Source: Nannocystis bainbridge
Lineage (GTDB): Bacteria; Myxococcota_A; Polyangia; Nannocystales; Nannocystaceae
Length of the DNA: 64,000 nt
Assembly: GCF_028368995.1 (NCBI RefSeq)
Contig: NZ_JAQNDL010000003.1
Location: 2,848,001 to 2,912,000, forward strand
Direction: 5' to 3'
Each line of letters begins with the position of its first letter. Position 1 is the first letter of the stretch. The notes under the pieces are model-generated. The model ran no database searches and was not told the DNA's origin. It worked only from the letters and a program-made list of their open reading frames with translations. Shown here piece by piece: positions 12,712 to 51,800 of the stretch. A program made the position numbers and the translations under genes.

Positions 12712-14586
12712 ATGCACCGCTCCTTGAACGTATTCGGCGACGCGCGCCTCGTCGTCGCCCTCGCCTCGCTCGGCCTGGCCGCCTGCGGCGACGACGGCAC
12801 CGCCACTGATAGCGCCACCAACGCCACGACCTCCGGTCTCACCGCCACCGACGGCACCGCCACCACCACGCCGGACACGCCCACTGGCACCGCCTCGACC
12901 ACGCAGGACGGTTCCGGCTCAATGAGCGACACCGTCAGCCCGACCGAGCCGACCACCACCGATCCGACCGCGACCGGCGTCAGCGAGACCACCGACACCA
13001 GCGGCCCCGTCAGCGCCACCGACACCACCGCGACCACCGGCGAGACCTGTCAGAGCGCCGAGTGTTGCGACATGGGCGAGGTCTTCTGCGGCGAGGTCTG
13101 CTGCAGCGTCGGCGAGGTCTGCAACTTCACCAAGTGTGAGCTGCCCGGCGCCGAATGCAAGGAGACTGCCGATTGTGCGGACGACCAGTACTGTGATTAC
13201 TCGCTCGGCGAGCCTGACGTGAAGCCCCCCGATCCGCTGTGCATGGGCGGCGTCGCCGAGCCGACCGGCAAGTGCCTCACCCAGCCGCCCCTGTGCGGCC
13301 CCAACGATCCGCCGCAAGATCCCAACGACCCCGAGTGCCTGCAGAGCTGCGAATATACGATCGGCGGCGGCGAGTTCAACACCACCCTCAAGTTCGCCTG
13401 GGGCGGCGTCGTCGACCCGCCCTACGACAGCGACATCATGATGACCCCGATCGTCGTCCAGCTCGACGACGACGACTGCGACGGCAAGATCAGCGAGCGC
13501 GACATCCCCGAGATCGTGTTCTCCACCTTCGTCAGCGGCCAGTACCCCACCAACGGCTCGCTGCACGCCATCTCGATCGAGGAGGGCGTCGTCGTCGAAA
13601 AGTGGAACGTGCTCGCCGGCGCCATCAACCCGACCAAGCAGCTCGCCGGCGGCAACTTCGACGGTCAGCCCGGCAACGAGGTCGTCGCCTGCGGCAGGAA
13701 CGGCGAGGTGTTCGCCGTCAAGGGCGAGGACGGCACGCCGCTGTGGACCGTCAATCAGACCTGCTTCATGCCGGCGATCGCCGACCTCGAGGGTGACGGC
13801 AGCGTCGAGGTCATCGTCGAGGGCGCGATCCTCGACGGCGCCACCGGGGCGGTCAAGGCCACCTTCGACCCGCCGCTCAACAGCTCCTTCATCGTCAGCG
13901 ACCTCGACGACGACGGCATCCTCGACATCATCACCTCGAGCCGCGGTTACCACGCCGACGGCAGCATGTTCGTCGACACCCAGCTGGCCGCGACCGGCCA
14001 GTTTTATGCCACCCAGGACTGGAAGAGCCCGTGGCCGGCCATCGCCGACTTCGACGCTGACGGCGTGCCCGAGGTCGTCGTCATCGACAACCTCGCCCAC
14101 GCCCTCTCGGTCTGGCGCCACGACCCGAACGCCCCCGCCGGGTTCGTCGTCGTGCGCGGCCCCGTCGACATCAACGGCAGCCTCAACCCCACCCTGTGCC
14201 CGCAGGGCTCGTGGGGCCGCACCCACGGCGGCGGCCCGCCGACCGTCGCCGACTTCGACGGCGACGGCGTCCCCGACGTCGGCACCGCCGGCGGCATCGG
14301 CTACGCCGTGTTCAGCGGCGCCGCGCTCGTCGACCCCGCCGTGGCCGGCCCGGACACCCTGCTGTGGATCAAGCAGACCGCCGATTGTTCGTCGGCCTCG
14401 ACCGGCAGCTCGGTGTTCGACTTCGACGGCGACGGCAAGGCCGAGGTCGTCTACTCCGACCAGAACCGCCTGCGGATCTACGAGGGCCCGACCGGCGACG
14501 TCCTGCTCGAGCGCTGCAACACCACCGCGACCCTGATCGAGTACCCCGTGATCGCCGACGTCGACAATGACGGCTACATGGTCTAA
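12712..14586 (+). CDS. FG-GAP/VCBS-repeat lipoprotein, 5' part, interrupted by the island
   Basis: Lipobox LAAC, Thr-rich linker, Cys-rich region and repeated AD(F/L)DGDG motifs; ends abruptly as ...IEYPVIADVDNDG-YMV*, with the last three codons supplied by lower-GC island DNA. Confidence 0.9.
   Translation: MHRSLNVFGDARLVVALASLGLAACGDDGTATDSATNATTSGLTATDGTATTTPDTPTGTASTTQDGSGSMSDTVSPTEPTTTDPTATGVSETTDTSGPVSATDTTATTGETCQSAECCDMGEVFCGEVCCSVGEVCNFTKCELPGAECKETADCADDQYCDYSLGEPDVKPPDPLCMGGVAEPTGKCLTQPPLCGPNDPPQDPNDPECLQSCEYTIGGGEFNTTLKFAWGGVVDPPYDSDIMMTPIVVQLDDDDCDGKISERDIPEIVFSTFVSGQYPTNGSLHAISIEEGVVVEKWNVLAGAINPTKQLAGGNFDGQPGNEVVACGRNGEVFAVKGEDGTPLWTVNQTCFMPAIADLEGDGSVEVIVEGAILDGATGAVKATFDPPLNSSFIVSDLDDDGILDIITSSRGYHADGSMFVDTQLAATGQFYATQDWKSPWPAIADFDADGVPEVVVIDNLAHALSVWRHDPNAPAGFVVVRGPVDINGSLNPTLCPQGSWGRTHGGGPPTVADFDGDGVPDVGTAGGIGYAVFSGAALVDPAVAGPDTLLWIKQTADCSSASTGSSVFDFDGDGKAEVVYSDQNRLRIYEGPTGDVLLERCNTTATLIEYPVIADVDNDGYMV
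14554..14574 (+). other. attL of the integrative island
   Basis: GCCGACG-TCGACAA-TGACGGC; 19/21 identical to 53926-53946, and the two mismatches bracket a 7-bp core flanked by imperfect inverted repeats. Confidence 0.85.
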
Positions 14587-14654
14587 AATAGCTATTAGTG
14601 CTCGAATTCGAGATATTGTGTACTTTCGGACATGCTCCAGCGCGACCTTGATCT

Positions 14655-14672
14655 GGGTCGTTTTTGGTTCGA
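14655..14672 (+). promoter_or_regulatory. Putative integrase arm-type binding sites (left)
   Basis: GGGTCGTTTTTGGTTCGA matches GGGTCGAAATTGGTTCAA at 53833-53850. Confidence 0.5.
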
Positions 14673-14696
14673 TATCGGTGGGGGACGGAAATCGAG

Positions 14697-15950
14697 ATGC
14701 TCACGAATGCTCAGACACGAGAGGCGAAGTCGCGCGCGATCCGATATGAGATCACCTGTGATGCACTGCCAGGATTCATCCTGCGGGTGCTCCCCACTGG
14801 CAAGAAGGTGTTTTTCGCCAGGTACCGTGATGCTGGCGGAAAGGACAGGCGGGTAAGGCTTGGACTGATGCGGCCGGGGTTCGGTGCTGAGGAAGCGCGC
14901 CGAGAAGCGATGATCATCCTCGCGCGACGTGACGCGCCGGAGAGCGTCGACGCGCCCGCTACGCCAAGCACCCCGATCGAAGACGCGCCCTCGCTCGGAT
15001 CGAAGTCGCCCACGCTCGCCGAGTTCGCCTTGCGCTTTGAACAGGAACATATCGACATGCGCTTAAAGCCAGAAACGGCCTGGCACTACAAGTCGTCGCT
15101 CAAGAAATACATCCTCCCCAAGCTCGGCCACCGACGGCTGGACGACATCACCACCGGTGACGTGAACAAGCTCCATACCAGCATGAAGCCGACACCGTGC
15201 GCGGCGAACTACATGCGCTGCGTGCTGAACGCGTTGTTCAACAAGGCGGCCAAGTGGGGAGTGACCAAACAGCGCAATCCGGTCGCAGATGTCGAGCGCT
15301 TCGACGAGCGGTCCGTCGAGCGCTTCCTGTTGCCCGAGGAGCGCGAGGCGCTCGAGCGCGTGCTGGCGACGGCCGAGCGCACGCCGCCCGGCAGACACGG
15401 ACACATCGGACGCGAGGCGATCGCCGCGGTGCGGCTACTCGCGCTCACCGGCATGCGTCGCGATGAGGTCCGGGACCTCCGGTGGGAGCAGGTGGACTGG
15501 CGTCAGAAGATGCTCCGGCTCCCGGACTCGAAGACCGGCAAGCGCGACGTGGTGGTGTCGGACGAGGTCATGGAGCTGCTTGGGCGGATCGCCCAGGCCA
15601 AGGGCAACCCGCGGCGCGGGCTCGTCATTTGCTCACGCAACGGCAAGAAGCTCAAGAGCCTCCAGTCGACGTGGCTCAAGGTCCGCAAGCTGGCCGGTCT
15701 CGAGGATGTGCGCCTGCACGACCTCCGGCACTCGTTCGCCAGCGACGCGATCATGGACGGCACGCCGCTCGAGGTCGTCGGTAAGATGCTCGGCCACCGC
15801 AACTACCGCACGACGCAGCGCTACGCCCACATCGCCGACAAGGCGCTGCGCGAGGCGGTGAACCGGACGAGCAAGACGATCGCCCGCGCGGCGAGGGGCA
15901 AGGCGAAGGCCACCAAGCGGCCCGGCCCGGCCTCCCAGAAGCGGCGATAG
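14697..15950 (+). CDS. Tyrosine recombinase/integrase with N-terminal arm-DNA-binding domain
   Basis: D..LPGF.LRV.PTG.K.F..RYR N-terminal domain; catalytic motifs GMRRDE, SKTG, HDLRHSFAS and LGHRNYRTTQRYAH. Confidence 0.95.
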   Translation: MLTNAQTREAKSRAIRYEITCDALPGFILRVLPTGKKVFFARYRDAGGKDRRVRLGLMRPGFGAEEARREAMIILARRDAPESVDAPATPSTPIEDAPSLGSKSPTLAEFALRFEQEHIDMRLKPETAWHYKSSLKKYILPKLGHRRLDDITTGDVNKLHTSMKPTPCAANYMRCVLNALFNKAAKWGVTKQRNPVADVERFDERSVERFLLPEEREALERVLATAERTPPGRHGHIGREAIAAVRLLALTGMRRDEVRDLRWEQVDWRQKMLRLPDSKTGKRDVVVSDEVMELLGRIAQAKGNPRRGLVICSRNGKKLKSLQSTWLKVRKLAGLEDVRLHDLRHSFASDAIMDGTPLEVVGKMLGHRNYRTTQRYAHIADKALREAVNRTSKTIARAARGKAKATKRPGPASQKRR

Positions 15951-16167: not shown

Positions 16168-17109
16168 TTACGATCGGTCGCGCGCTTGCACGACGAGGGC
16201 GGCAGCGCCAGCACCCGCAGCAAAGCACGAGATACCGAACAGGATTTTGCGGCCGAGGCTCCAGTCCTTCCGGGCGGTGAGCTCGGCAAGCTCGGCCCGA
16301 TCGCGCATGTGAAGCTGCACGAGCTCCTGGTTCTCTTGTGCTAGCCGGTCCAGCTCGGACTGATCTTCCGCGCGGAGGCGCTCGAGCGACGTGTTCGAGC
16401 CACGGAGCCTGGCGAGCTCAGCGGCGTCGTCCGCGATCCGCTTCTCCAACGCGACATTATGTTCGTGGAGCTCTGTGATACGCGCGGTCAACTCCGCCAC
16501 CGCGGCCTTGACCTCTACGTTCGCCGCGCGCTCCGCGTCGGCCGCCGACTTCGCGGACGACGGGTTCGGGACGGCTCGAAGGTGCCGCACCTTCGCCTCC
16601 TGCTTCATGGCCTCCACGTCCTCAAGCCCGACTGCGATGGCCTCTTCAACGTCCTCGTCCATGAATTTGACGAACAAAAATTCTTGCTCGGCGCCCAGCG
16701 CGACCACGAGGCGGTCGAAGGTGGCGAGCGTGGGGTTCGGCTCGGGATCGTTGAGCAGGCTGCTGAGCTGAGAGCGGTTAATCCCGGAGACCTTGGCGAG
16801 CGCTGACACCGTCTGGATCTGCTCGCGCTCGATGATCTCCTTGAGCCGCCCGATGATCGCCGTCGGCTCGTTGAGCTCGAGGCCGTGGAAGCGGGCGCCG
16901 GCTTTTTGGACGAGCTCAAGGTAGAGCGCCAACTTCGGGTTTGGTTCAGGTTGGTCGAACAACGCGAGCACGTGCGCGGAGCTGTGCTCTGAGCGCTCCG
17001 CGAGCTCTTGTTTCGTCATGCCTGACCGCCGTAGCCATGCCTCCAATTCCCCGAACCAGCGACGCGTACCCATGGTAACCCATCGTAGGGTAGGCAGTGT
17101 GGCGGTCAA
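16168..17109 (-). CDS. Tandem XRE-like HTH protein with coiled coil and C-terminal TM helix
   Basis: Two homologous HTH blocks (ELAERS...PEPNPKL and ALAKVSGINRSQLS...PEPNPTL), a heptad-rich region and ILFGISCFAAGAGAAALVV. Confidence 0.75.
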   Translation of the reverse strand: MTATLPTLRWVTMGTRRWFGELEAWLRRSGMTKQELAERSEHSSAHVLALFDQPEPNPKLALYLELVQKAGARFHGLELNEPTAIIGRLKEIIEREQIQTVSALAKVSGINRSQLSSLLNDPEPNPTLATFDRLVVALGAEQEFLFVKFMDEDVEEAIAVGLEDVEAMKQEAKVRHLRAVPNPSSAKSAADAERAANVEVKAAVAELTARITELHEHNVALEKRIADDAAELARLRGSNTSLERLRAEDQSELDRLAQENQELVQLHMRDRAELAELTARKDWSLGRKILFGISCFAAGAGAAALVVQARDRS

Positions 17110-21942: not shown

Positions 21943-23125
21943 TCAATGACTTTGAGACACGGTGTTGGTCGGGTTTAGTGATTGTGAGATTTCGCCGGAG
22001 TGGTGATGAAAGGATGGATCGGTCGTGCTGCACCCGTCCGAAAGGACATGGACGTCGTACTCGCGAAGGCCGCGTTCGAGGCGGCGCGGTGGGTTGATGT
22101 AGACCGCGGCGGGAGGCCGGCGCGGCGTGGACAGTCCGCGGACGAAGCGCTCGGGATGGGCTTCGTAGGCGGCGTGGAGGGCGGCAGCCCTGATGGACAG
22201 GATGGCCTCGGTGCGGCCGTAATGCACGTCGGCGGGCGCCAGGAAGGCGATGCCGGAGTGGCGGTGGTGATGGTTGTAGCCGTCGACGAAGCGGCCGCAG
22301 AAGGCGTGGGCGTGGTCGTAGGAGGCGAAGCGGTCGGGGTAGTCGTGGGTATACTTGAGGGTCTTGAAGTGGGCCTCCGAGTACGGATTGTCGTCGCTGA
22401 CGTGGGGCCGGCTGTGCGAGCGGCGGGCGCCGAGGACGTCGTAAAGGTCGGCGAGCTCGCGGGAGGTCGGGACGGCGCCGCGATCGGCGTGGATGGTCAA
22501 TTGGTCAGGTTGAATGTTCTGCTTGTCGCAGGCGGCGCGGATCAGGCGCGCAGCGATGTCGGCGCTCTCGCGGCGCGCCAGGGTCCAGCCGACGACGCAG
22601 CGGCTGTAGATGTCGAGCAGGACGTACAGGTAATAGTATTGGCCCTTCGTCGGTCCCCGCAGCCAGGTGACGTCCCACGACCACACCTGGTTCGGCGCGG
22701 TCGCCAGCAGCTCGGGGCGCTTGTACTCGGGGTGCCGCCGCTGTCGCCGGCGCTCGCGGAGCTCGCCCTCGGCGGCGAGCAGGCGATACATGGTGCGCGC
22801 GCTGCATAGCCAGCGCTGCTCGTCGAGCAGCATCGGCACGATGACCTCGGGCGCCTTGTCGACGAAGCGCTCGCTGTGCAGCAGTTCCAGCACCTCCTGG
22901 CGCTCCACCGCGCTCAGCGCCCGTGGCGACGGCCGCGGCTTCGCCGAGCTCGGCGACGGCGCAGGGCGGCGCCGACGGTACACGGTCGCCCGCGAGACCC
23001 CCAGCGCCTCGCACGCCCGCGACAGACCTGTCCTCGCGGACAGATCGTCCGCTTGCGCGATCAGGGCTTCTCGGACGGATCGATCGTCGCGAGCGGGATC
23101 CCGAGCAATTGCGAGACTTTTTTTT
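21943..23125 (-). CDS. IS3 transposase OrfB (DDE), probably expressed as an OrfAB fusion by -1 frameshift
   Basis: PNQVWSWDVT, LDIYSR, IHADRG and DNPYSEAHFKTLK; A8G slippery run at 23117-23125 on the minus strand. Confidence 0.9.
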
Positions 23126-23459
23126 GGACATCGATGATCAGCTCCGCCGTCTCGAGCTTGTGCTCGAGCTGCGCCACACGGCGGCGCAGGCGCTCCAGCT
23201 CCTTCTGCTCGGGGTCCTGCTTCGGCTTCGGTCCGCGTTTCTTCGGCTTCAACGCGCCCAGCGTACCCTCGTCTCGCTGCCGCCTCCAGGTCGACAACAG
23301 CGAGCTGTACAGGCCCTCCTTGCGCAGGATGGCGCCGATCTGCCCATCGCTCGCGTGGTCGGTCTGCGCGAGGATCTTCCGCTTGTACGCCGGCGTGAAG
23401 CTGCGACGCGTCGCCTTCTCGGCGGTCTCGGGGTCGGGCTCTCGTGCTTGAGTCGCCAT
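23061..23459 (-). CDS. IS3 transposase OrfA (HTH)
   Basis: RRSFTPAYKRKIL...ILRKEGLYSSLLSTWRRQ...IIDVQKKVS. Confidence 0.85.
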   Translation of the reverse strand: MATQAREPDPETAEKATRRSFTPAYKRKILAQTDHASDGQIGAILRKEGLYSSLLSTWRRQRDEGTLGALKPKKRGPKPKQDPEQKELERLRRRVAQLEHKLETAELIIDVQKKVSQLLGIPLATIDPSEKP

Positions 23460-23812
23460 CAGATCCATGCCTCCTTCCTCGCCCGATTCGAGCCCGAACT
23501 CCACCCGCGAGTGCGCCTCGGCATCGCCGCAAGCGCAGCAAGAATTTCGACGGGACTACGCCCTTGCTGACTCGCCGCATCGGTACCCGGCGACCTCGAC
23601 GCGCTCTCGCCTCGCCGACTCGATTGCTCCTTGTCTCTGCTCCGCAGCAGGGCGCTCCTGGCGATCGGGCCCGCTGTAGGTGAAGCAAGAACTTCGACGG
23701 GACTATACGATTGCTGACTCGCCGTATCGGCGCCCAACGGCCTTGCCGTGCTCTCGTCCGATCTACTCGATTGCTCTCCGTTACCGCTCTTCTCGATGGT
23801 TTGGTGACTCAT
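23459..23812 (-). CDS. Possible IS passenger/leader ORF with internal 49-aa duplication
   Basis: EQSSR..ES..R..G.D.ASQQ..SPVE.LA occurs twice in frame; its TGA overlaps the OrfA ATG (TGATG). Confidence 0.4.
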   Translation of the reverse strand: MSHQTIEKSGNGEQSSRSDESTARPLGADTASQQSYSPVEVLASPTAGPIARSALLRSRDKEQSSRRGESASRSPGTDAASQQGRSPVEILAALAAMPRRTRGWSSGSNRARKEAWI

Positions 23813-25753: not shown

Positions 25754-27499
25754 GTGAAGCTGGAGGCTCACCGCGACCCGCTGCCTGGGTCGATCCTCGA
25801 AGGACGTTACAGGCTCGTGCGCCTCCTCGGCCGCGGCGGCATGGGCAGCGTATATGTGGCCGAGGAGACGCGGCTGGGGCGGTCCTACGCACTGAAGCTG
25901 CTCAAACCCGAGCTCACGGAGGACCGCGCGCAGATCGAGCGATTTCTCCGCGAGGCGCAGACGATCGCGCGGCTGGAGCACCCAAACATCGTCGACATTC
26001 ATTCATTCGGCGAGGACCCCTCGGGCTTCGTGTTCTTCACTATGGAGCTGCTGACCGGCGAGGACCTCGAGTCGCGGATCGCCGCGCGATCGGGCCGGCC
26101 CTACAGCGTGCGTGAGGCGTGCGCCTGGGCGATCCAGATCGCGCGCGCGGTCGGATACGTCCACCAAAACGGGCTGATCCACCGCGACCTCAAGACACAA
26201 AACGTCTTCCTCGCGCGCACGCGTGACGGCGGCGAGATCATCAAGCTGCTCGACTTCGGCATCGCGCGCCCGGAGAGCGGCTCGGAACTCACTCGCACGG
26301 GGAACATCCTCGGCACGCCGAGCTACATGTCACCCGAGCAGATCCGCGACGAGCGGCTGGACCGCCGCTCCGACATCTACTCGTTCGGCGTGCTGCTATT
26401 CAAGCTGCTCATCGGGCGCGCCCCATTCGTCGGCGAGGCGATCCAGGTGGCGATGCACCACCTCACCTCGCAGGTCCCGCCGCCGTCGTCGCTCGCGCCC
26501 GGCGCCGGGATCCCGCCGGCCCTCGACGAACTGGTCCTCAAGGCCCTGTCTAAACAGCCGGGCGACCGCTACGCCTCGATGGAGGAGGTCGAGCGCGCCC
26601 TCGTCGCGGTGTATGCGACCCCGCTGCTCGCCCCGCCGGTCAAGCTCGCGCCGCCCGCGGCATCCTCCCGGCCCCCCTCGTTACAACCCGAGGTCGACCA
26701 CGCCGACGAGGGGGCGCTCTCGCTCGCGACCACGGCGTCTCTGCTGCGCCCACCACGCTGCTCCGAGTCTCCCGCGGCGACTGTCCCCGCGAGCAGCGCG
26801 GCGCTCTCGGTCGACGAAGCGGCGCTCGACGAGGTTACGGCGCGGAGCCTCGTCGAGCGAGTGGCGACCGACCCGGCTCTGATTCCGGTCGCCGCCCCCC
26901 CGGCGCCGGCCAGTCCCTCGCCGGCGCGCACGAGCCAGCTCTGGCGTCTCCTCGCGCTCGGAGCGAGCCTTGCGTGCCTTCTCGCCCTCGCAACGTGGCT
27001 GGTCGCTCGCCTAGGGCTCAACATGCCGGCGGTCGTTTCCCCGGCCACCGCCCCGCCGGCCCCATCGATCGTCGCGTCGCCCTCTCCACCCATGCCGGAT
27101 ACGGCAAAGAGCGCTCCCATCATTCTGCCGGACCCGGCTCCGCCCGCGGCCGAGCCGCCTGCTCCCTCCGCGCCGGAGCCCGACGATGCCCCGAGCTCGA
27201 ACGACCCGGAGGACCCGCGACCGACGAAGGTCGATCGCCCGAAGTCAGAACCCGTGAAGCCGAAGGTCAGCCCACCGGACCCGATCGCCCGGATCAAGGA
27301 GCGAGCCCGCGCCTGCCGCCGGAAGCACAACGCCGTCGACCAGCCTGCGCTCACCGTCGAATTCGCGGTTGGGAGCGACGGCGCCGTCCTGCGCGCCACG
27401 CCCGCGAGCGACACCCCGCTCGCCATCTGCCTCGCCGATGCCGTGAAGCAGGCCCGCTTCGAGCCCAAGATCCGGCTCCGGCAGGAGATCTCTCTGTGA
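25754..27499 (+). CDS. Membrane Ser/Thr protein kinase with TonB-C/AgmX-like C-terminal domain
   Basis: LGRGGMGSVY, ALKLL, HRDLKTQN, DFG, GTPSYMSPE and SDIYSFG; TM helix; C-terminal C...VEFAVGSDGAV...ICLADAV..ARF. Confidence 0.92.
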   Translation: MKLEAHRDPLPGSILEGRYRLVRLLGRGGMGSVYVAEETRLGRSYALKLLKPELTEDRAQIERFLREAQTIARLEHPNIVDIHSFGEDPSGFVFFTMELLTGEDLESRIAARSGRPYSVREACAWAIQIARAVGYVHQNGLIHRDLKTQNVFLARTRDGGEIIKLLDFGIARPESGSELTRTGNILGTPSYMSPEQIRDERLDRRSDIYSFGVLLFKLLIGRAPFVGEAIQVAMHHLTSQVPPPSSLAPGAGIPPALDELVLKALSKQPGDRYASMEEVERALVAVYATPLLAPPVKLAPPAASSRPPSLQPEVDHADEGALSLATTASLLRPPRCSESPAATVPASSAALSVDEAALDEVTARSLVERVATDPALIPVAAPPAPASPSPARTSQLWRLLALGASLACLLALATWLVARLGLNMPAVVSPATAPPAPSIVASPSPPMPDTAKSAPIILPDPAPPAAEPPAPSAPEPDDAPSSNDPEDPRPTKVDRPKSEPVKPKVSPPDPIARIKERARACRRKHNAVDQPALTVEFAVGSDGAVLRATPASDTPLAICLADAVKQARFEPKIRLRQEISL

Positions 27500-28619: not shown

Positions 28620-30125
28620 CTACAACCGGAAGCGCAGCGTCTCGCCCGACCGAAGTCCCAGGCCCTCGGCGAGCCTCGCAACGCAGTCCCCGAGATCGCC
28701 GAACGCGGCGCGGCCGTTGAATTTCACCTCGGGCGTCCCGCCGGACCGCGCCTCGATCGTGACCTGGGACTTGACCTGCTTCCCTTCACGGTCGCAGGCG
28801 AGGATCCCTCGACGGGCACGGCGCTCGGTCGCGGTCTTGACGACGACCGGCTTTGACGTGCCGGCCAGCACAGTCCCCTGTCTGACCGTCTCCGACCGCT
28901 CCACGCGCGCCGCTGTGGCACCGCCAGACTTGTACGGGGCATGCGCGGGTTCGGAGCCGTCCGAAGGGGCCATCTTGATCGGAGAGAGCAACGCGGGCTG
29001 GCCATTGCGGCTTCTCTGCGACACGGTGAGCTCGGGTACTTGCGGCCGCTCGTAGGCCGCCAGAGCGCCGGCATCCTGCGCCAACTCCACGCCGCCGGAA
29101 GTCGACAGCGCAGCCACCGCGGACCCACCGATCATCGCACCGAGCATCACGCCCATGAGCATCACACGCGGCATCCTGCCGGGCTCCGGGTGTGCGATGA
29201 CGGGGACCATGGCAGGCAGCTCAGCGAGTGCGTCGTGGAGCGCCAGCGCCATCTCCTTCGCGTCCGAGAAGCGGTGCTCGACGTCGCTGAGCGCACGCAT
29301 GACGATCTGGTCCACGCTCTCGGGGATCTCGAGGCCGGGGGCGATCATCGCCAGCGTGGGTACGGCGATCTGGCCCGGCTCCGCCACCATGAAGTCCGGG
29401 ATCGTCTGCGCGGTGAGCATCTCCCACATGAGCACGCCGAGCGCGTAGAGATCGGAGCGCGGATCTGGCGGGCAACCGGCGCAGCGCTCCGGCGCGACGT
29501 ATCGGCGCAGTCCGTACACCGTGTCATCAGGGACAGGCGCGTTGGTGATTTTCTTGCTCGGGAGCACGGTGGCGAAGCCGAAGTCGATCACCACTGCGAA
29601 GTCAGCGTCCGCGATGTCGTGGCGGAGCATCACGTTGGAAGCGTGCAGGTCGTTGTGGATGATGCCAGCGCCGTGCAGCTCGTGGAGCCCGGACAGCACG
29701 TGCAGCGCGATCCGGCACATGCGTCGCCATGGTATGGGTCCGCGCCGCGCCAGCGTCTGCAGCGACATGCCTTCGACGAACTTGAACACGGTGAAGGCGC
29801 AGCCCTCGTCGCAGCCGAAGTCGAACGCCTGGATCACGTACGGGCTCGAGTGACGGCTGGCTACACGGCCCTCCTGGCCGAAGTAGCCGAGCAGGCGCTC
29901 GTGCAGGCTCGAGTGCAGGATCTTGACCGCGACCTTGCCGCCGGTGCGCGTGTCCTCCGCGCAGTAGACCGTCGAAGTCCCGCCGGGTCCGATCGGCTCG
30001 TTGAGCTTGTAACGCCCGCCGACGAGCTCGTCGGAGTAGTTCTCCCGCGGATCGTCGTCCTCGACGTAGTGAAAGTTTAGGTCCGGGTCGCGAGCTTGCT
30101 TGGGGGGGTGCCAGATCGCGGGCAT
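28620..30125 (-). CDS. Membrane Ser/Thr kinase with atypical catalytic loop
   Basis: IGPGGTSTVY, VAVKIL, HNDLHASN, DFG, YVAPE and SDLYALG; TM helix; Cys-paired C-terminal domain. Confidence 0.88.
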   Translation of the reverse strand: MPAIWHPPKQARDPDLNFHYVEDDDPRENYSDELVGGRYKLNEPIGPGGTSTVYCAEDTRTGGKVAVKILHSSLHERLLGYFGQEGRVASRHSSPYVIQAFDFGCDEGCAFTVFKFVEGMSLQTLARRGPIPWRRMCRIALHVLSGLHELHGAGIIHNDLHASNVMLRHDIADADFAVVIDFGFATVLPSKKITNAPVPDDTVYGLRRYVAPERCAGCPPDPRSDLYALGVLMWEMLTAQTIPDFMVAEPGQIAVPTLAMIAPGLEIPESVDQIVMRALSDVEHRFSDAKEMALALHDALAELPAMVPVIAHPEPGRMPRVMLMGVMLGAMIGGSAVAALSTSGGVELAQDAGALAAYERPQVPELTVSQRSRNGQPALLSPIKMAPSDGSEPAHAPYKSGGATAARVERSETVRQGTVLAGTSKPVVVKTATERRARRGILACDREGKQVKSQVTIEARSGGTPEVKFNGRAAFGDLGDCVARLAEGLGLRSGETLRFRL

Positions 30126-30127
30126 GG

Positions 30128-31036
30128 TCAAAACTCCAGAGCGACGCGGAGGCCGAGATTCGGCCATGCCGAGGGGCGCACAGCCACCCGGCGCGTCCGT
30201 CGATGCCGGCTGGCATCGACCGCCAGGAGCGTGATCCCCGAGATCACTGAGGCCGCCGCGAACGCGCCGACCGAAGCGCCGATGGCGTTGGCTCGCCGGC
30301 CCTCTGCCAGGAGCCTGTCGCTCGCGCGCTGGGCCTCCTCGGGGACATGCCCCGGCGTGAACTCTTGGTGCAGCAGCTCGTCGCGGCGTCGCTGAAGGAG
30401 TTCACCGTAGGTGAGCATCGCCACGGTCGCCATGCTCGCCGCGAGACCTACGCCGAGCGTCACGCCACCCGCGAGCCGCAGCGAGCGGCGAACGCCAGAC
30501 CTCGGCGGCGCCGCGGGCGGCGTGTCGAGTGGGCGAGAGGTCGGAGGCGGCCGCTTCAACACCGGGGCGATCGGCAGCAACCCGTCCTCGCCCACCGCTT
30601 TCGGGTCGGCCGCTGGCGCCTGCTCGACGCATATATGCTCGCCGAGCTGGGCCTCCACGGCATCGAGGAGCTTGCGCGCGTCCCGTCGGTCCCCGGGGTG
30701 TGTGTCAGCCGCGATGAAGCGCTCATGGAACGCCAGGAAGTGCCGGAGCAGGGCCGCCTCGGCGCATAGGTGCGAACGATCGTCGCCCGCCTGAAACGCT
30801 TCCTGGTACGTGTGATGCGCGTCGAAGACGATCGAGGCCCGGTCTTGCAGCGCGGCCTCGGTGCTCTCCGTGCCGAGCGCGTCGTAGGCCGCACGGCAGC
30901 GCGGCGCCGCTTCGACCGCTCGACCCGCATCGCGCAGCTCCACGCAGGCCGCGTGCTCGCTCGCCGCCGACACCGGCGCCGCGGACAGCATCGCCGGCGC
31001 GAACCAGGACAAGGCCCAGGCGAACATCGGCGCCAT
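30128..31036 (-). CDS. Exported helical protein with C-terminal hydrophobic hairpin (architecture like 24575-25558)
   Basis: Signal-like N-terminus, helical core, GGVTLGVGLA hairpin, ends LRVALEF; stops 2 nt before the kinase ATG. Confidence 0.7.
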   Translation of the reverse strand: MAPMFAWALSWFAPAMLSAAPVSAASEHAACVELRDAGRAVEAAPRCRAAYDALGTESTEAALQDRASIVFDAHHTYQEAFQAGDDRSHLCAEAALLRHFLAFHERFIAADTHPGDRRDARKLLDAVEAQLGEHICVEQAPAADPKAVGEDGLLPIAPVLKRPPPTSRPLDTPPAAPPRSGVRRSLRLAGGVTLGVGLAASMATVAMLTYGELLQRRRDELLHQEFTPGHVPEEAQRASDRLLAEGRRANAIGASVGAFAAASVISGITLLAVDASRHRRTRRVAVRPSAWPNLGLRVALEF

Positions 31037-31877: not shown

Positions 31878-32186
31878 ATGGACCCCGCTGCCGCCCACCA
31901 CCCACTGGAAGAGCCGATCGACCTCGAATGCACCGTCGTCGAGGCCCGCCTGCGCGAACCCGGTTTCTACGAGACCGCGACGCGAGTCTTCTACGTGACT
32001 CCGCGCCGCGACGTGTACCTGTTGCAGGCCCCCGGCGCGGCCCTCACGCTCCAGGCGGTCGACGACCTGCCGCATGGCGCGTCCGCCGTCGCCCGAGCGG
32101 CCGTGGACGCCCCCCGGCGAGAACTCGCCGCTCTCATCGACCGCCACGGCGCTCGCCCGGATCTGACCGAAAGGACCGCACCATGA
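31878..32186 (+). CDS. Hypothetical protein
   Basis: AAAGG-type RBS, gene-like codons, ATGA overlap with the Crp gene. Confidence 0.55.
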   Translation: MDPAAAHHPLEEPIDLECTVVEARLREPGFYETATRVFYVTPRRDVYLLQAPGAALTLQAVDDLPHGASAVARAAVDAPRRELAALIDRHGARPDLTERTAP

Positions 32187-32959
32187 CGGCTGGGCCGCGG
32201 GGCATCCTCTGGTACCTCCGCAAGGTCCCGGCTTTCTCTGTGTTGCCCAAGTCCGCCTTGCAGGCGCTCGGCGACGCCACCGCGTTGCGCGAGCTCTCGC
32301 GGCGGACCGTCTTGCACATGCCCGGGGACGACGCCGAGCACGTCTACTGCCTCCACGGCGGCCGGGTCTGCGTTCTGCGCGAGTCGACGACCTGTCGCAC
32401 GATCAACCTCGGCGACTTCGGGCCCGGTGACATCTTCGGCGAGAGCTGCGTGTGGACGCCCGCCCCGCGGGAGGACACTGCCATCACCACGGCCGCGGCT
32501 CTGCTCTCGATGATCCCGCGAGTCGCCCTGCGCCTCGTGCTCGACGAGTACCCCGAGGCTGAGCGGACCCTGGTCGCACAGTCGATGGCCCGCCGCGACG
32601 CGACCACACGGCGGCTGTGCGACGCACTCAGCCTCAGCGTCCGAGCGCGGCTCGCCGGCCAAATTCTCCGGCTCGCCGAGGGTGGCCGCAACACCATGCG
32701 TGGCCGCGAACTCGTGATCTCGATCCGCCACCATGAGCTCGCGGCCCTCGTCGTCAGCACGCGGGAGACCGTGTCGCTCGAGCTGCAACGGCTCGAGCGC
32801 GACCGACTGATCGCGCGGGTCGGTCGCCAGATCGTCGTACCCGACCTCCGCCAGCTTCGGGCCGCCGCCCGCGAAGACCGGCCGCCAGAACAGGACCCGG
32901 CTCGCGCGAAGGCACGGTCCACGAAAACGACATCCACCCGAGGGGCACGCGCCCCTTGA
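32183..32959 (+). CDS. Crp/Fnr-family transcriptional regulator
   Basis: cNMP-binding fold (PGDIFGE) and HTH (ELAALVVSTRETVS..L..L). Confidence 0.9.
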   Translation: MTAGPRGILWYLRKVPAFSVLPKSALQALGDATALRELSRRTVLHMPGDDAEHVYCLHGGRVCVLRESTTCRTINLGDFGPGDIFGESCVWTPAPREDTAITTAAALLSMIPRVALRLVLDEYPEAERTLVAQSMARRDATTRRLCDALSLSVRARLAGQILRLAEGGRNTMRGRELVISIRHHELAALVVSTRETVSLELQRLERDRLIARVGRQIVVPDLRQLRAAAREDRPPEQDPARAKARSTKTTSTRGARAP

Positions 32960-36926: not shown

Positions 36927-37178
36927 ATGCGCATCCACAGCATCATCCCCGCCAGCGAGCTCCAGCCCGGCCTGGCGACCATCATTGTCCGAATGCCCGG
37001 CCACCCCACGGTCCGTAGTCGCGCCGTCATGGTGCAGCACCACGGCCCCGGCGTCGTGCAGGTGGCGTTTGCCTCCGGCGAAATCCTGAGCATGAGCGAA
37101 CGGACGATGGTCGGACGGATCGTGAACTGCACGGTCCGGCCGACGCGACGCGATGCACCGCAGCGAGGCACGAAGTGA
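36927..37178 (+). CDS. Small hypothetical protein in the toxin operon
   Basis: Starts 6 nt after the upstream stop; its stop overlaps the next start. Confidence 0.55.
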   Translation: MRIHSIIPASELQPGLATIIVRMPGHPTVRSRAVMVQHHGPGVVQVAFASGEILSMSERTMVGRIVNCTVRPTRRDAPQRGTK

Positions 37179-37606
37179 TGCCGGACGAGCCGGACGAGCA
37201 TCCGCTCGCGGGCATCGACCGAAACCTCGCCGGCGTGCTGCGCCTCGTCAACCTGGCCGAGGCGCAGGACCGGGCGCCCTTCGAGCAGGTCTGGTGGTCG
37301 CTACGCGGCATGAAGCGCGGCGTGGTCGCGGCGCTGTCCGGCGTCATGAACCACGAGCGCCGAATGCACCCGACCGGCGCCGCTTTGCTCCGCACGCTTC
37401 TCGATGAAGAGCGCGCATGCACGTACCAGCACGCGGCACGGATCGGACTCGTGCCGCGCGTCGGGGGCCCGACGACGGCGCGCTCGTTGTCCGGGTCGGC
37501 GCTCCGTTTTAACCGTGGCGACGGGGCATCTGCGCCGCCGTCATCCACCGATTCTTTTCCACCTGTTGAGGTCGGAACGGCTCTGACGACGCTGCTGGGT
37601 CTCTGA
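37175..37606 (+). CDS. Small hypothetical protein in the toxin operon
   Basis: GTGATG overlap with the previous stop; helical-looking sequence. Confidence 0.55.
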   Translation: MMPDEPDEHPLAGIDRNLAGVLRLVNLAEAQDRAPFEQVWWSLRGMKRGVVAALSGVMNHERRMHPTGAALLRTLLDEERACTYQHAARIGLVPRVGGPTTARSLSGSALRFNRGDGASAPPSSTDSFPPVEVGTALTTLLGL

Positions 37607-37643: not shown

Positions 37644-40600
37644 ATGTCTCTCCGAACAGGTCCCATTCTGGTCGCGCTCGTGCTCGCGGCGGGCACCGCC
37701 CGCGCCGACACCAGTGCGACCCTGGCCACCGCCATCAACCTCCCGAAGGGCCCGGCCTCGATCGAGGGCTTCGGCCAGGGTTACGACGTCAGCGCCGCGA
37801 GCGGGCTGCCGTCCGTGTCATACCCGATCGAGGTCCCGCCGGGTCGCGCGGGCCTTCAGCCTCAGCTCGCGCTGCATTACAGCGCTGGCGAAGGCGCGGG
37901 GGTGCTGGGGCTCGGCTGGTCGCTCGGGCTCCCGGCGATCGAGCGCTCGCTCCGGACCGGCATCCCGCGCTACGACGACACCGACGCATGGGTCCTGCGC
38001 GGTCTCGGCGGTGGCGAGGAGCTCGTCGAGGTGGCGCCGGGCGCCTACCGTGAGCGGATCGAGCAGGGCCCGCCCGTCGTCGTCCGCTCGCTGCCCGGCG
38101 GAGCCATGTCCGCCGTCACCACGGACGGCACCGGCTATCTGTTCGGTCTCACGGACGAGGCGCGTCTCACTGGCGACGCGGGCGACTTCCGCCTCGAGCT
38201 CTCGGCGATCACCGACGTCCACGGCAATCGCATCGATTTTTACTACGCGCGCGAGCAGGGCTCCTCCGCACCACTGCTCGCTGCGATCACCTACAACGAC
38301 GGCCGCGCCGCCGTTCGCTTCGCCTACGAGACGCGCACCGACCTCGTTCGCACCCGGGCGCCGGGCTTCGCGGTCGAGCTGCGCCACCGGCTCCGCGCGA
38401 TCGTCACGGAGGTCGATGGCGCGCCCGTCCGCACCACGACGCTCACCTACCATCAGACCGTCATGAACCCGGCGAGCGCCCTCGCCCGGATCGACACCTC
38501 CGCGAGCGACGGCGCCGCGCTCCCGCCCTGGCACCTCCGTTACGCCGGCGCGCTCGACGAGCCGCGCGAGAACCCGATCGCCGAGGCCCCCGCGCTCGAT
38601 CCCACCGCGGACGGCCGCGCCTGGGTCGACATCGACGGCGACGCGCTGCCCGACCTGCTGGATACGACCCTGGACGGTTGGCGCTACCGCAAGGGCCGAG
38701 GCGCCGCGCTCGCATCCTCCTGGACCCCGATCCCGACGCCTGCCGCCACGCTCACCGCGTCCGCGCGCTTCGCCGACCTCACGGGCGACGGGATCGAGGA
38801 TCTACTCGCGCAGCCCAGCGAGGGCGAGTTGTGGGCGTTCACCGGGGGCGGCACCCCGTTCGGCAAGGGCACGCCGATCAGCCTCGACGTCGGCTTCGAC
38901 CTCACCGCGCCGAACGTCGCCCTCATCGATCTCAACCTGGACAGCCGCGTCGACGTGCTGAGACATGACGATGCGGACGGCTGGATCTGGATCCGCCACC
39001 ATGACGCGGCTGGCTACCTCCCGGCCGAGCCCGTCCCTCCGCCGCCCGCCGGCATGCGTCTTGGCGATCCTGGGGTGCAGCTCGCCGACCTCGACGGCGA
39101 TCGCCTGCCCGACCTCGTGCGCGTCCTGCCGAGCGAGAGCCGCATCCTCGTCGCCGCGGGCGAGGGTTTCGGTCTGTTCGCCGAGCCGGTCGATCTCGCG
39201 GGCGTGCCACCGATGGCGGAGGGCCAGCGCTGGGAGGTCGCCGACCTCAACGGCGACGGCGCGGCGGACCTCGTGCGGATCGGCGCCGCGTCACTGGACC
39301 TCTACACCTACCAGCACGACGGCGCAGTCGCTCCGGCCACGAGCGTCGCCTGGCCCGACCTCCAAGCCGATGAGATCGTGATCCTGAGCGACGTGGACGC
39401 GAGCGGCACCGTCGACGTGCTGCGCGTCGACACAGACGGTTCACAGCCATGGCGCGCCTGGACGTTCGCGGAGCGCCCCGGTCTGCTCGCCGAGCTGCGC
39501 ACTGGCCTCGGCTACAGTCGAGACTTCACCTACGCGTCAGCCGCGGTGCTCGCTGATGCCGACGCCGACGCAGGCGCCCCATGGAAGTCGACGCCCCCGA
39601 CACCGCTGCCGGTGCTGATCCGGTCTCACGAAACCGACGCGCACACGTCCTGGACGCACACCGCGGAGCACCACGTGCGCGACGGCTGGTATGACCCGGC
39701 CCGCGGCGAATTCCGCGGCTTCGCCGAGCTGCGCGAGACCGACCTGGGCGACGGCCACAGCGAGACCGCGACCACCACCACGCGCTACGACCTCGGCCAG
39801 ACCGACGAGGCCCGCAAACTCCAGCTCCTCGACAGCGAAACCGCGAGCCCGCGCGGCATGCTCGTCCGCGAGTCGCACACAATCGGGGTCGAGAGCCCCG
39901 CGCCCGGTGTGCTCGCCGCCCGCCGCGTCGCCACCGACACCGACCACCTGGAAGCCGGCCCGGCCGCCGCGGCCGTCCGCGTGCGCACCGAGTGGGATTT
40001 CGACGCGTGGGGCAATGTCCTTGAGGAGCGGGCCCTCGGTCGTGTCGACGCAAAATCCGGCGCGGACCTGCCGGGCGACGAGCGCATCACGATGTACACG
40101 TACGCCGAGCCCGCGGCCGACGATGCGCCGCGCGACCGCGTCGCCGAGCAGATCGTCAGCGACGCCGACGGCGCGCAGATCACTGCGATCCGGACCTACT
40201 ACGACGGACCGCCGGAACAAGGCGCGCCGCTTGGCCAGCTCGACGCCCGCGGCGTCGTCGCCCGAGTCGAGACCTGGCTCGCTGGCGAAACCTGGGTCCC
40301 GACGCTGCGCCAGACGGTCGACGCGCACGGCAACATCACGCGGATCCGCGACGCCGAAGACGGCACGCTGGAGCGGCATTTCGACGATGACGGTTTGTTC
40401 CCGATCGAGGAGCGCCTGCTGCTCGCCAGCGCCGACGATCTGGTGACGACGGCGACCTGGGACGCGCGAACGGGGCATCCCCTCGTCGTCAGCGCGCCCA
40501 ACGGCGCCACGACCCGCGCCGAGTACGACGGCCTCGGCCGCCTGATCGCGGAGATCGAGCCCGGCGACACGCCCGAGCTGCCGACCACGCGCTACCGCTA

Positions 40601-48824: not shown

Positions 48825-51800
48825 GTGTCGTCGCAACGGAGTTCGTCCCCGCCGGTCGAGGTGCTGATCGTGACGGCGCTCCGGATGGAGCGTGATGCGG
48901 TCAAGGCGGTGAGCACTGGAGCGCTGGGCGTCTGGAGCGAGGAGCGTGTGCCGGGCACTGGGCTGCGAGTGGAACGGCGGTCGTTCGCTGCGGCAGACGG
49001 GGCGAGGCTGACCGTCGCGTTGATCTGCGCGGAGGACATGGGCGGGACGCAGACCGCAGGCGTCGCCGGCCCGGTCGTGATGGCGCTACGGCCGCGGTGT
49101 TTGGCGATGTGCGGGGTGCTGGCCGGGAAGCCGGGAGACACCGAGTTCGGCGACGTGGTGTTCGCCGACCAGTTGCTCCTCCACGACTCGGGGAAGCGAA
49201 CGGCGAAGGGCTTCCAGCACGGGACCCGGCCCCATGTCATGGATATCCGGTGGGTGGAGAAGGCGCGTGACTTCGCCGAGGATCCTGGCGACGCGCTCGC
49301 ATGGCTGCGCGGGCCGGACTGGACCGTCGATCAGCAGCGGGCGTGGCTGCTCGATCAGTTCGCGCGAGGGCGTGGCTCGCAAAGCCTCGGGCCGTTGCTC
49401 GCGGAGTGTTGCCCGGAGTACGAGAGCATCGTCGCGGGGCTGCTCGCGGAGGAGCTGGTCCATCCGGGGGACCAGCCGCTCACCGAGCAAGGCAAGAAGC
49501 ACGTCGACGCCGAGCGGTTCAAGTCGCAGCGCTGGCCGGGACTCGATCCACCGCGGCGCTCGCTGCGGGTCCATGTCGGGCCGATCGCCTCCGGCAACGC
49601 TGTGCAAGGGGACGAGGTGCTCTGGGATGAGCTCGAGACGTTCGCGCGCAAGGTGCTGGGCGTCGAGATGGAGGCCCACGCGGTCGCCAACACGGCGGAA
49701 CTCCTGCAGCTCGAGCTCGCGGTGGTCATGAAGGGCGTGATGGATCATGCCGACAAGCACAAGGACGACCGCTTCAAATCGTTCGCCGCGCGGGCCTCGG
49801 CAGAGTGCCTGCTCGCGTTCCTGCGGCGAAATAGCGCCACACGGGTACGAACGGGGTATGACGACATCCTGTCGCCGGGGACTGCGACGTTGCCGGACGA
49901 CCCGAGCCCGTCCCGCCTGCTACACCCGTCGTACGAGGTGGTGAAGTTCTTCCGGGCGGGGCGGAAGGACATCCTGGCCGAGCTAGACGAGTGGTGCACG
50001 ACCGGGAAGGCGGTGCAGGGGCGACTCGTCCACGGTCCGGGGGGATTCGGCAAGACCCGATTGGCGATCGAGTGGACACGTGACCTGCGCGAGCGCGGGT
50101 GGGCGGCCGGATTTCTTCACGCGCACGTTGTCGAGGACTGGTTCGACCGCGTGGTCGGACTCGGGATGCCGGTCGCCGTGGTGATCGACTACGCCGAGAG
50201 CCGCGCCGAACTACGGCAACTGCTCGCGCCAGTGCTTCAGTACGCGTCGGCCAGGGTGAAGTTGCCGGTGCGGATCCTGCTGCTCGCGCGTGGGGTAGAC
50301 GACTGGTGGCAGGCGCTGCTCGAGGGCGACGAGTCGCGGCGTGCGTTTCTCACAGCGGTACCGCCAGTACCGCTGCGACCGCTCGCCGACGGGTCGGAGG
50401 TGCGGGTGGAGGTGTTTCGTGCCGCCGCGGCCGAGTTCGCGGCGCGGCGCGGCCGGACGGCGCCGACGGTGTCCAGGGCGCTGACAGACCCGATCTTCGA
50501 TCGTGCCCTGTACATTCACATGGCGGCGCTCGCGGCGGTAGACGAGCTGGACCTACAACCGCCCCGGAAGGCAGAGGAGGAGCCGCTGTTGGCGGCGATC
50601 CTCGAGCACGAGGAGCGCTTCTGGGACGAACGGCAGAAGCGACACGACCGGCAGCACCGCCTCCACGTCGAGCGGGCGCGCCGGCTCGTGGCGGCCGCCA
50701 CCCTGCGCGGCGGCTTACCGACGCGTGAGGTGGCGAACGCCATCGGAACCCGGCTGAGGGCCGCGGACGAGGATCTGCTCATGCTGCTGCACGACGTGTA
50801 TGGCGCGCCGGGTAGCGGAGGCGGACCCGGGACCTACGTGGGTCCTCTCGAGCCCGACCTACTCGGCGAGGGCATGGTGCGGCGGACGTATCGGCGCATG
50901 GACGAGCCGCGGGAGAACTACATTGACGGGGTGTTCGAGGACGCCGACGCGGACCGTCTCCGCCATGGTTTTGAGGCTCTGGGGCGAGCTGCGGTGGGCG
51001 AGAAGCCGGTGGTCCGTCCGTGGATCGATCGACTGTTGGCGCGGGAGACGGCAACGCGGGCACTGCTCGCGTTCGCAGCGGCGAAGGCCGTCGGCCGGCG
51101 CACGGCCTTGTCTGTACTCGGCGATGCGTTGGCCGATGCGCTCGAGCGAGCCGGGGACGCACGTGTGGCCGCGGCTCTCGAACACGACGGAATTCCAACG
51201 CAGACGGTCACGCTTCGCCGCGTCGCGGTGTGGGTAAGCAGAGCGCTGCTGGCAGCGGCCCCGGATGGGGAGGAGGAGAACTTTCTCTCGCAGCGGGCTC
51301 ATGTCCTGAACAACCTCGGCAACAGGCAGAGCGAGGTCGGACAGCGGGAGGCGGCGCTCGCGTCGACGGCGGAGGCGGTGCGCATCTACGAGGAGCTGGC
51401 GAAGCGGAACCCGGACGCGTTCCAGCCGGACCTCGCCATGAGCCTGAACAACCTCGGCAACAGGCAGGGCGAGGTCGGGCAGCGGGAGGCGGCGCTCGTG
51501 TCGGTGGCGGAGGCGGTGCGCATCTTCGAGGAGCTGGCAAAGCGGAATCCAGACGCGTTCCAGCCGGACCTCGCCGCAAGCCTGAACAACCTCGGCGCTA
51601 TGCAGAGTGAGGTCGGGCAGCGGGAGGCGGCGCTCGTGTCGACGGTGGAATCGGTGCGCCTCCGTAGGGAGCTGGCGAAGCGGAACCCGGACGCGTTCCA
51701 GCCGGACCTCGCCGCAAGCCTGAACAACCTCGGCAACAGGCAGAGCGAGGTCGGGCAGCGGGAAGCGGCGCTCGCGGAGGCGGCGGAGGCGGTGCGCATC

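Follow-up and report, generated by a model that had tools for sequence, protein, structure and literature searches.

We analysed a window of 64,000 nucleotides from the genome of Nannocystis bainbridge (RefSeq assembly GCF_028368995.1, contig NZ_JAQNDL010000003.1, positions 2,848,001 to 2,912,000 of the forward strand; the coordinates below are those of the window unless another locus is named) and found that a gene of the FG-GAP family is split there by a 39.4-kb genomic island. The island was very probably inserted by its own tyrosine integrase at the codons of an FG-GAP loop, as part of a clade of integrases that target motif codons. Site-specific integrases are usually portrayed as having a single address in each genome, in most cases a tRNA gene, and the P4/lambda type is usually directed to the 3′ portion of a tRNA or tmRNA gene.

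An FG-GAP gene divided by a 39.4-kb island at loop codons

The 5′ part of the split gene (12,712–14,574, forward strand, 621 codons) was delimited from the list of open reading frames (ORFs), Pfam matches, a third-position G+C content (GC3) of 0.94 and collinearity with the intact orthologs at five loci of other genomes (L107–L111). It belongs to a 624-codon ORF (12,712–14,586) that matched the Pfam families FG-GAP_3 with 64.7 bits (cut-off 26.9; best stretch residues 570–623) and FG-GAP with 33.6 bits (cut-off 22.1). The final seven host codons of this ORF, A-D-V-D-N-D-G, are written in frame by the 21-mer GCCGACGTCGACAATGACGGC at 14,554–14,574 (attL), in agreement with the first-pass annotation of this DNA, which had equated the att site with the codons of an FG-GAP loop. 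By its DxDxDG consensus, the loop is predicted to bind Ca2+. Directly after the 21-mer, the island supplies Y-M-V and a stop codon (14,575–14,586). At the other end, attR (53,926–53,946, GCCGACATCGACAACGACGGC) is preceded by non-coding DNA and differs from attL by two mismatches. The FG-GAP reading frame resumes at attR and runs open, as an FG-GAP-like frame, to 54,579. This 3′ part of the gene (53,926–54,579, forward strand, 217 codons plus stop) was 89–93% identical in nucleotide sequence to intact orthologs in five other genomes of the genus, and from its residue 2 it aligned to positions 8–25 of the FG-GAP profile with an E-value of 0.0054, below the cut-off.

When both gene parts were compared with the genome by BLAST, they matched intact paralogs head to tail, with the seven motif codons common to both matches. 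The two parts are collinear on intact paralogs, so that a single gene holds an insertion of 39.4 kb with a 21-bp imperfect direct repeat at its borders. With up to three mismatches allowed, the attL 21-mer had four matches in the window, as compared with 0.03 expected from shuffled sequences.

Both blocks lie on the forward strand and consist of three 7-bp segments. In attL these are a host-side arm (14,554–14,560), an overlap (14,561–14,567) and an island-side arm (14,568–14,574), and in attR an island-side arm (53,926–53,932), an overlap (53,933–53,939) and a host-side arm (53,940–53,946). Two sister loops on the same strand of the 5′ part bear out the earlier remark that such motifs share most of the arm sequence and differ in the core: A-D-F-D-G-D-G at 14,248–14,268 has the same arms as attL around a different central 7-mer, and the further loop at 14,044–14,064 also differs from the att site in its central seven bases. 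An in-frame ATG (53,923–53,925) just before attR and the stop three codons after attL are both supplied by the island. Judging from these signals, each half of the gene could still be translated on its own.

ARAGORN found neither a tRNA nor a tmRNA gene in the whole window, and no tRNA-derived sequence was seen at the island ends. The chromosomal attachment site (attB) lies in a protein-coding gene, not in a tRNA or tmRNA gene.

Empty sites and the register of strand exchange

The 300-nt left and right flanks of the island were 92–96% and 91–93% identical, respectively, to L107–L111. The two matches were adjacent and overlapped by exactly 21 bp at all five loci, which hold the 21-mer once, within the uninterrupted frame TATLIEYPV(I/V)AD(V/I)DNDGQADIVVVSNA. 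Since the 21-mer is single and the gene intact at these orthologous loci, insertion was precise and the loci give the sequence of attB. The central 7-mer was identical in attL, attR and all five empty sites. It is bracketed by positions 7 and 15 of the 21-mer, the only two at which attL and attR differ. The outer 7-mers of the empty attB are inverted-complementary at 6 of 7 positions. The inverted arms that the codons GCC GAC ... GAC GGC had been said to form are real, but they are imperfect.

Three observations on related elements fix the register. The island G038:C24, whose integrase is 68.6% identical to that of the window, has an attL and an attR with only 7–8 bp in common, in the same register relative to the conserved arms on the P and P′ sides. 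The 52 integrase-proximal junctions of the clade described below were aligned by MAFFT without gaps across the att region. Finally, the metagenome contig L163 carries a right-end arm, a 7-mer, a left-end arm and the integrase start on one piece (about 1,711–1,877 of that contig). We therefore place strand exchange at the central 7 bp (14,561–14,567). The L163 string GTACACGACAACGGCAATGTCGTGTAC is a perfect 10-bp inverted repeat around seven bases. Up to the 7-mer, the right-end arm of the window aligned with those of G038:C24 and L163 at a mean column identity of 81%. L163 is attP-like and could represent an excised circle, a tandem island pair or an assembly join. As summarised in PMC10111431, tyrosine integrases need identity between attP and attB in the exchange segment, which is typically 7 bp long.

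It is highly improbable that the island arrived without site-specific recombination, either by transposition, which would make the 21 bp a target duplication, or through homologous recombination of FG-GAP paralogs at the repeated motif. The latter is conceivable because the motif is repeated in paralogs, but the two gene halves belong to one ortholog and not to two paralogs. A target duplication would start with identical copies, whereas the two blocks differ at 2 of 21 positions, and no transposon-like terminal inverted repeats were seen at the island ends. In addition, the integrase gene is 122 bp from attL, and the P′ and P arms are conserved at the same distance across dozens of independent elements.

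The integrase and the arms of the island

The integrase gene (14,697–15,950, forward strand) is an intact, full-length ORF for a protein of 417 amino acids, and all its Pfam domains scored above cut-off: Phage_integrase (PF00589) with 100.4 bits (cut-off 27.1; profile positions 25–170 of 172), Phage_int_SAM_3 with 33.7 bits and Arm-DNA-bind_3 (PF13356) with 30.5 bits (cut-off 27; residues 2–76). The best relative in the Protein Data Bank was the XerC-like 4a8e (E-value 8.8e-14), and XerA, XerD and the HP1 integrase were also among the relatives. No NCBIfam model scored above its cut-off for the integrase or for six other proteins. The strings H-D-L-R-H and, near the C terminus, R-Y-A-H were read by eye as the putative HxxR and Tyr boxes.

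The left arm of the island (P′ side, 14,575–14,696, forward strand) consists of 122 bp, lower in G+C content, that separate attL from the start of the integrase gene. The right arm (P side, 53,833–53,925, forward strand) comprises a candidate arm-type site (53,833–53,850), a box conserved with related islands (53,875–53,907) and the ATG at 53,923. The window contains just two copies of an 18-bp block, on the same strand, at 14,655–14,672 and 53,833–53,850 (0.01 expected). Within the island, these copies are 81 bp away from attL and 76 bp away from attR, and similar blocks were present at the ends of G038:C24, L163 and a further element, G021:C9. They are candidate arm-type sites, which the N-terminal domain of the integrase would bind. 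A generic 10-mer arm motif was tried as well and showed no enrichment (27 found, 25.8 expected), and the longer 18-bp block was used instead.

The left arm also contains a conserved imperfect inverted repeat of the TGT..n..ACA type (14,615–14,633), which nearly all homolog loci have at the corresponding position. Across the related integrases, whatever their target class, boxes of this type were located about 65–80 bp upstream of the integrase start. The box may be an operator or an element of the integrase promoter.

Insertion sites of related integrases

A search of 73 genomes of the order yielded 86 integrase matches in 24 genomes at E ≤ 1e-60. Junctions were read in 85 genome loci, about 110–135 nt before the integrase start. 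Host genes were labelled by reading the translations, and Pfam confirmed part of these labels only. The most frequent target was a W-N-Q-H-x-Y-x-x-T-N motif in FG-GAP-domain genes (28 loci), followed by the DUF4215 Cys-rich repeat (10 loci), Ser/Thr-kinase motifs (9 loci) and the FG-GAP DxDxDG loop (5 loci). Eight junctions adjoined tRNA pieces, 14 were given no name and eight were cut by contig ends. Two junctions were read as a histidine-kinase H-box (L093 and L094) and one as fibro-slime (L076). Pfam found no family at these three, so that the labels are unverified and the frames may be wrong. At the locus of the closest full-length relative (L013, 73.7% identity), the junction was at the A-D-L-D-N-D-G codons of another FG-GAP blade in another gene.

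A metagenome scan added 54 loci with integrases 59–83% identical to that of the window, 42 with a readable junction and 12 without. The 42 junctions comprised 13 FG-GAP-type loops, 27 x-C-D-D-G-N, one C-G-N-G-N and one attP-like junction, with no tRNA gene. Together with 10 genome loci they form the pool for the clade of the window's integrase (clade A): 52 junctions, 47 of them distinct (five duplicate pairs), from integrases 56–83% identical, although these relatives are not independent. FG-GAP-type loops accounted for 17 of the 52 and DUF4215 codons (C-D-D-G-N or C-G-N-G-N) for another 32. One junction was attP-like and two were of other kinds. The first-pass annotation had suggested looking for close homologs beside truncated FG-GAP genes, and the 17 FG-GAP-type junctions supplied them. 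Among ORFs upstream of FG-type junctions, 7 of 10 reached the FG-GAP_3 cut-off, two were just below it and one had no match. DUF4215 was confirmed by Pfam in all three host ORFs tested.

Motif-coding DNA rather than a tRNA gene had been the central proposal of that annotation, and close homologs at tRNA genes would have spoken against it. None of the 52 clade A junctions was at a tRNA gene. The eight tRNA-adjoining relatives were all at most 41% identical to the window's integrase. ARAGORN found whole tRNA genes at only one of the 85 loci (L089), and the label of the other seven came from reading reverse-strand T-arm or acceptor-like strings.

DUF4215-type and FG-GAP-type junctions share register and frame. 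At the overlap register, the 7-mer was of the Cys-rich type in 33 of the 52 junctions and of the window's type in 14, and four others occurred two, one, one and one times. At L121, one of the clade's junctions, the same register holds the sister 7-mer, which is that of the common D-x-D-G-D-G loops. The host-side (left) arm took six forms among the 14 junctions bearing the window's 7-mer. An overlap that is invariant within each target class, next to a host-side arm that varies, fits the earlier suggestion that the core decides the choice of site.

A tree of 77 integrases was rooted by choice on a tRNA-labelled row. The tRNA-labelled rows were basal, and the window's integrase fell in a clade of 10 (SH-aLRT 100) made up of FG-loop and Cys-rich targeters. 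The target labels required 23 changes on this tree as compared with a mean of 47.5 after shuffling, and none of 200 shuffles was as low. In a tree of 41 full-length integrases, one branch (UFBoot 94, SH-aLRT 94) set the eight FG-loop targeters apart and another (92/82) the 26 Cys-rich targeters. These comparisons support the view that the window's integrase clade targets motif-coding DNA and not tRNA genes.

Use of several sites by one integrase

Nearly identical integrases of the Cys-rich (DUF4215) sister subclade were found beside different host DNA. In the pair L124/L129, the integrases were 99.5% identical in amino acid sequence and the 150-nt host flanks 73.3%. The corresponding values were 97.8% and 74.7% for L122/L151 and 96.4% and 71.3% for L132/L133. 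A fourth pair, L143/L150, had integrases 98.3% identical and flanks 100% identical, and is one insertion seen twice. Such comparisons of integrase and flank show the use of several sites by one integrase for this sister subclade only.

Soil and rhizosphere metagenome contigs were also searched for the window itself. The best run shared 0.43 of the sampled words, and four runs (X1, X2, X3 and X5) were mapped. A 1,827-nt contig of soil run X3 fits the window from 14,564, inside the overlap, to 14,827 with 16 other letters (about 94% identity), and the 1,562 bases to the left of this match do not fit the window's gene. This contig is a weak, noisy hint of another site for a window-type integrase. 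The long pieces X1 record 4, X3 record 23 and X5 record 30 were kept as weak hints.

Number of landing sites in the genome

The first-pass annotation had expected the many FG-GAP paralogs to provide a large pool of landing sites, which was an overstatement. Open frames of the genome contain 741 x-D-x-D-x-D-G loops, and the window's central 7-mer is present in 12 of them. The sister 7-mer is the commonest loop type (191 of 741). A 20-mer att pattern had eight copies in the genome, including attL and attR, as compared with none for the reversed control, and 0–8 copies in each of ten other genomes of the genus. The other 20-mer sites inspected were within open FG-GAP-like frames and were unoccupied. 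With the right 7-mer in 12 of 741 loops and eight copies of the pattern, the pool amounts to a handful of sites rather than the full FG-GAP repertoire. The asparagine codon of D-N-D-G supplies the final bases of the overlap. That the landing site is dispensable is only implied, by a gene that is broken here and intact in five relatives.

Locus specificity and mobility

Several observations weigh against insertion at motif codons by an integrase of broad reach that is still active. By our own reading of the flanks, 9 of the 17 FG-type junctions were at the homologous blade of one gene subfamily (x-E/N-Y/F/N-P-x-x-A/V-D-V/I-D-N-D), and the preference may be narrower than "the motif". A single insertion of the window's integrase was seen, with a best relative about 73% identical in the 73 genomes of the order. 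Among the loci surveyed, no two FG-loop integrases of near-identical sequence were found to occupy different sites, and the closest pair in the tree was far apart. The two positions at which attL and attR differ are also polymorphic in the empty sites, with A at the first in one ortholog and T at the second in another, so that the crossover cannot be located from the mismatches by themselves, and its register rests on the related elements. The 18-bp arm-site pattern is post hoc, since it was derived from the same two sites that it then matched. An insertion sequence (IS) lies inside the island, and no excisionase was recognised in Pfam scans of 19 island ORFs or PHROGs scans of 10. No excised or circular form of the island was seen in X1, X2, X3 and X5, where FG-GAP paralogs from other organisms dominated the contigs, spurious joints were frequent and absence could not be demonstrated.

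The shared blade and the lack of near-identical FG-loop integrases at different sites, together with six other copies of the 20-mer pattern that the island leaves unoccupied in this genome, favour an integrase specific for a single orthologous FG-GAP gene. The motif would then be a coincidence, since conserved stretches make durable att sites, and the varied contexts of the relatives would reflect diverged specificity. We consider such an integrase unlikely. It does not account for sister-subclade integrases 96–99.5% identical beside host flanks 71–75% identical, for six host-side arm variants with one 7-mer, or for FG-type junctions in at least five blade or gene contexts besides the shared one. 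The non-matching left flank of the X3 contig points the same way, faintly.

It is possible, although doubtful, that the island was inserted as described and is now immobile, fixed cargo. The IS transposase of the rve type inside it and the scans that recognised no excisionase, phage or conjugation genes would fit such a fossil, as would the excision product missing from contigs that could not show its absence. However, the island retains a full-length integrase ORF, its two att blocks and its two conserved arms, all of them intact, and it is absent from all five orthologous loci with flanks 91–96% identical, so that the insertion is recent on that scale. From these features, we infer that the island inserted at the FG-GAP loop may be mobile at present.

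A second FG-GAP motif and kinase catalytic loops as targets

An unoccupied second att target is present downstream of attR (54,088–54,117, forward strand), where the codons W-N-Q-H-T-Y-H-I-T-N are identical at 30 of 30 positions to the host side of the attL of another island, G000:C4. This second target, which a sister clade more distant from the window's integrase uses, lies about 55 codons downstream of the first in the same FG-GAP gene family and is unusually A+T-rich for the genome. Two paralogous integrases of the same genome (46.5% and about 40% identity) are located just after W-N-Q-H-T-Y-H-I-T-N codons of FG-GAP-family DNA. One belongs to G000:C4 (about 31 kb, integrase 46.5% identical), which splits an FG-GAP paralog between 746,726–746,755 and about 715,900 of its contig and has eight bases in common between attL and attR. 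The other (G000:C3) adjoins a degenerate copy of the motif at 473,323–473,352.

Ser/Thr kinases form another target class. The 22-kb element G021:C9 (about 22,750–44,990 of its contig, integrase 43.7% identical) splits a Ser/Thr-kinase gene just after the catalytic loop, and its attL and attR share seven bases. The kinase junctions in other Nannocystaceae (L059, L063, L066 and L072–L075) were at or near the catalytic loop, in either orientation. Pfam confirmed Pkinase at six junction genes (L059, L063, L066, L072, L073 and L075) and did not confirm this label at L068 and L080.

On balance, we lean towards a joint reading in which a radiation of arm-type integrases in the Nannocystaceae left tRNA genes for 7-bp overlaps in the motif codons of expanded families, so that each island has several interchangeable, individually dispensable sites. 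The targets of this radiation would be two motifs of the FG-GAP propeller, the C-D-D-G-N codons of DUF4215, the catalytic-loop and neighbouring motifs of Ser/Thr kinases and possibly others. New specificities would arise by a change of the 7-mer in attP, with arms and register retained.

Proposed course of integration

In the proposed process, the island's tyrosine integrase would catalyse site-specific recombination into the chromosome. The target is the 21-bp attB coding for A-D-V-D-N-D-G, in which two imperfectly inverted 7-bp core arms flank the 7-bp overlap. An island attP with the same overlap and near-identical arms would leave the 21-bp block duplicated at both ends, and the FG-GAP gene would be cut in two and not restored. 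The integrase is a member of a Nannocystaceae subclade found at FG-GAP loops throughout, and its sister subclade uses DUF4215 C-D-D-G-N codons. The overlap 7-mer in attP would set the motif variant that is used, and variation in the arms would be tolerated. Because the codon bias of a 71% G+C genome nearly fixes the third positions, a conserved peptide would amount to a conserved DNA word. The recurrence of this word in paralogs would create a handful of interchangeable landing sites per genome.

Comparison with known integration systems

The island resembles P4/lambda-type elements in the Arm-DNA-bind_3, SAM-like and catalytic domains of its integrase, in the integrase gene beside attL, in inverted core arms around a 7-bp overlap and in candidate arm sites on both sides, and distant relatives of its integrase (at most 41% identity) adjoin tRNA pieces. 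It departs from that type in its target, a protein-coding repeat motif, and in an attP that contains nothing to replace the cut gene, whose frame ends three codons after the site. Integration into protein genes, and clade-wise switching between protein-gene targets, are already known from the work summarised in PMC10111431 and PMC12884075. As in a known integrase clade that is sited in prophage genes, subclades follow site groups, new sites arise within one class of target genes, and targets are disrupted without replacement sequence. However, the sites of that clade are single-copy, whereas the present ones are motif words that recur in the FG-GAP, DUF4215 and Ser/Thr-kinase families. Genomic islands with conserved housekeeping genes as targets, among them SGI1 (3′ end of trmE) and dusA-directed islands, are outlined in PMC6531882 and PMC8409611. 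They share with the present island a tyrosine integrase and a conserved coding sequence as att site, but each uses a single-copy gene with one site per genome.

Several copies of the repeated sequence REP13E12 are reportedly able to serve as attB for phiRv1, a prophage of Mycobacterium tuberculosis. According to the summary of PMC9317374, phiRv1 has its attB in REP13E12 and uses a serine recombinase. The island and phiRv1 are alike in that attB lies in a sequence present several times per genome, but phiRv1 depends on a repetitive element, whereas the island combines a tyrosine integrase with conserved peptide-motif codons in a paralogous family.

Among titles and abstract openings, we found no published tyrosine integrase aimed at paralog-recurrent motif codons and no report of FG-GAP, DUF4215 or kinase genes as att sites, although tables of the TIGER and Islander programs could hold such islands. 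Of the TIGER islands, 56.6% are in tRNA or tmRNA genes or intergenic sequence, by the summary given in PMC12884075. As described in the same summary, one island-mapping pipeline discards attBs whose identity block is multi-copy, a filter that would hide islands at paralog motifs. If the pattern is general, it would mean a blind spot in island-mapping pipelines and would explain the uptake of many islands by very large, paralog-rich, high-G+C genomes without loss of essential genes. It would also offer a simple route of att-site switching, in which the 7-bp overlap is changed and the arms and register are kept. In myxobacteria, which are difficult to engineer, such integrases might be of use as tools for integration at multiple sites.

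Composition and cargo of the island

The 39.4-kb element has its integrase at one end and is bounded by direct repeats, is absent from close relatives and deviates in composition. It is a genomic island, with putative defence and competition cargo by its gene content. GC3 was 0.79–0.91 in island ORFs, as compared with 0.91–0.97 in 13 of 17 flank ORFs and 0.81–0.90 in four right-flank ORFs. The candidate ORFs for this comparison were chosen by GC3 (≥0.78) and second-position G+C content. Island GC3 below that of most flank ORFs and absence of the island from the five orthologous loci indicate foreign origin.

The cargo region (15,951–53,832) was scanned with Pfam, PHROGs and PADLOC, with small ORFs left out of the 19 Pfam and 10 PHROGs queries, and several large ORFs had no family. 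PHROGs matched one of its 10 ORFs, to transcription-regulator families only. No capsid, portal, terminase or tail family was recognised by Pfam in the 19 ORFs, and the element does not have the gene content of a prophage. No relaxase, coupling protein or type IV secretion family was recognised in the same 19 ORFs, among which several large ones had no family, so that absence is unproven.

Pfam identified a helix-turn-helix regulator (16,168–17,109, reverse strand) and a Crp-like regulator (31,928–32,959, forward strand). The IS element consists of a transposase with an rve integrase core (21,943–23,688) and an HTH_Tnp_1 ORF (23,061–23,504), both on the reverse strand. A Rhs/Tc-like polymorphic toxin of 1,959 amino acids (37,644–43,523, forward strand) combines SpvB, TcdB middle and N-terminal, FG-GAP_3 and RHS domains with a NucA/NucB DNase end, and is probably a module for interbacterial competition carried by the island. 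Just upstream of it are two small ORFs (36,927–37,178 and 37,175–37,606) with no family. Two Ser/Thr kinases (25,754–27,499, forward strand; 28,620–30,167, reverse strand) were identified by Pfam, and by PADLOC both resemble PD-T4-6. A STAND NTPase of 1,511 amino acids (48,825–53,360, forward strand) has PNP_UDP_1 and AAA_16 domains with many tetratricopeptide repeats, and was PDC-M60C-like by PADLOC. With this protein and the two PD-T4-6-like kinases, the island cargo looks like anti-phage defence.

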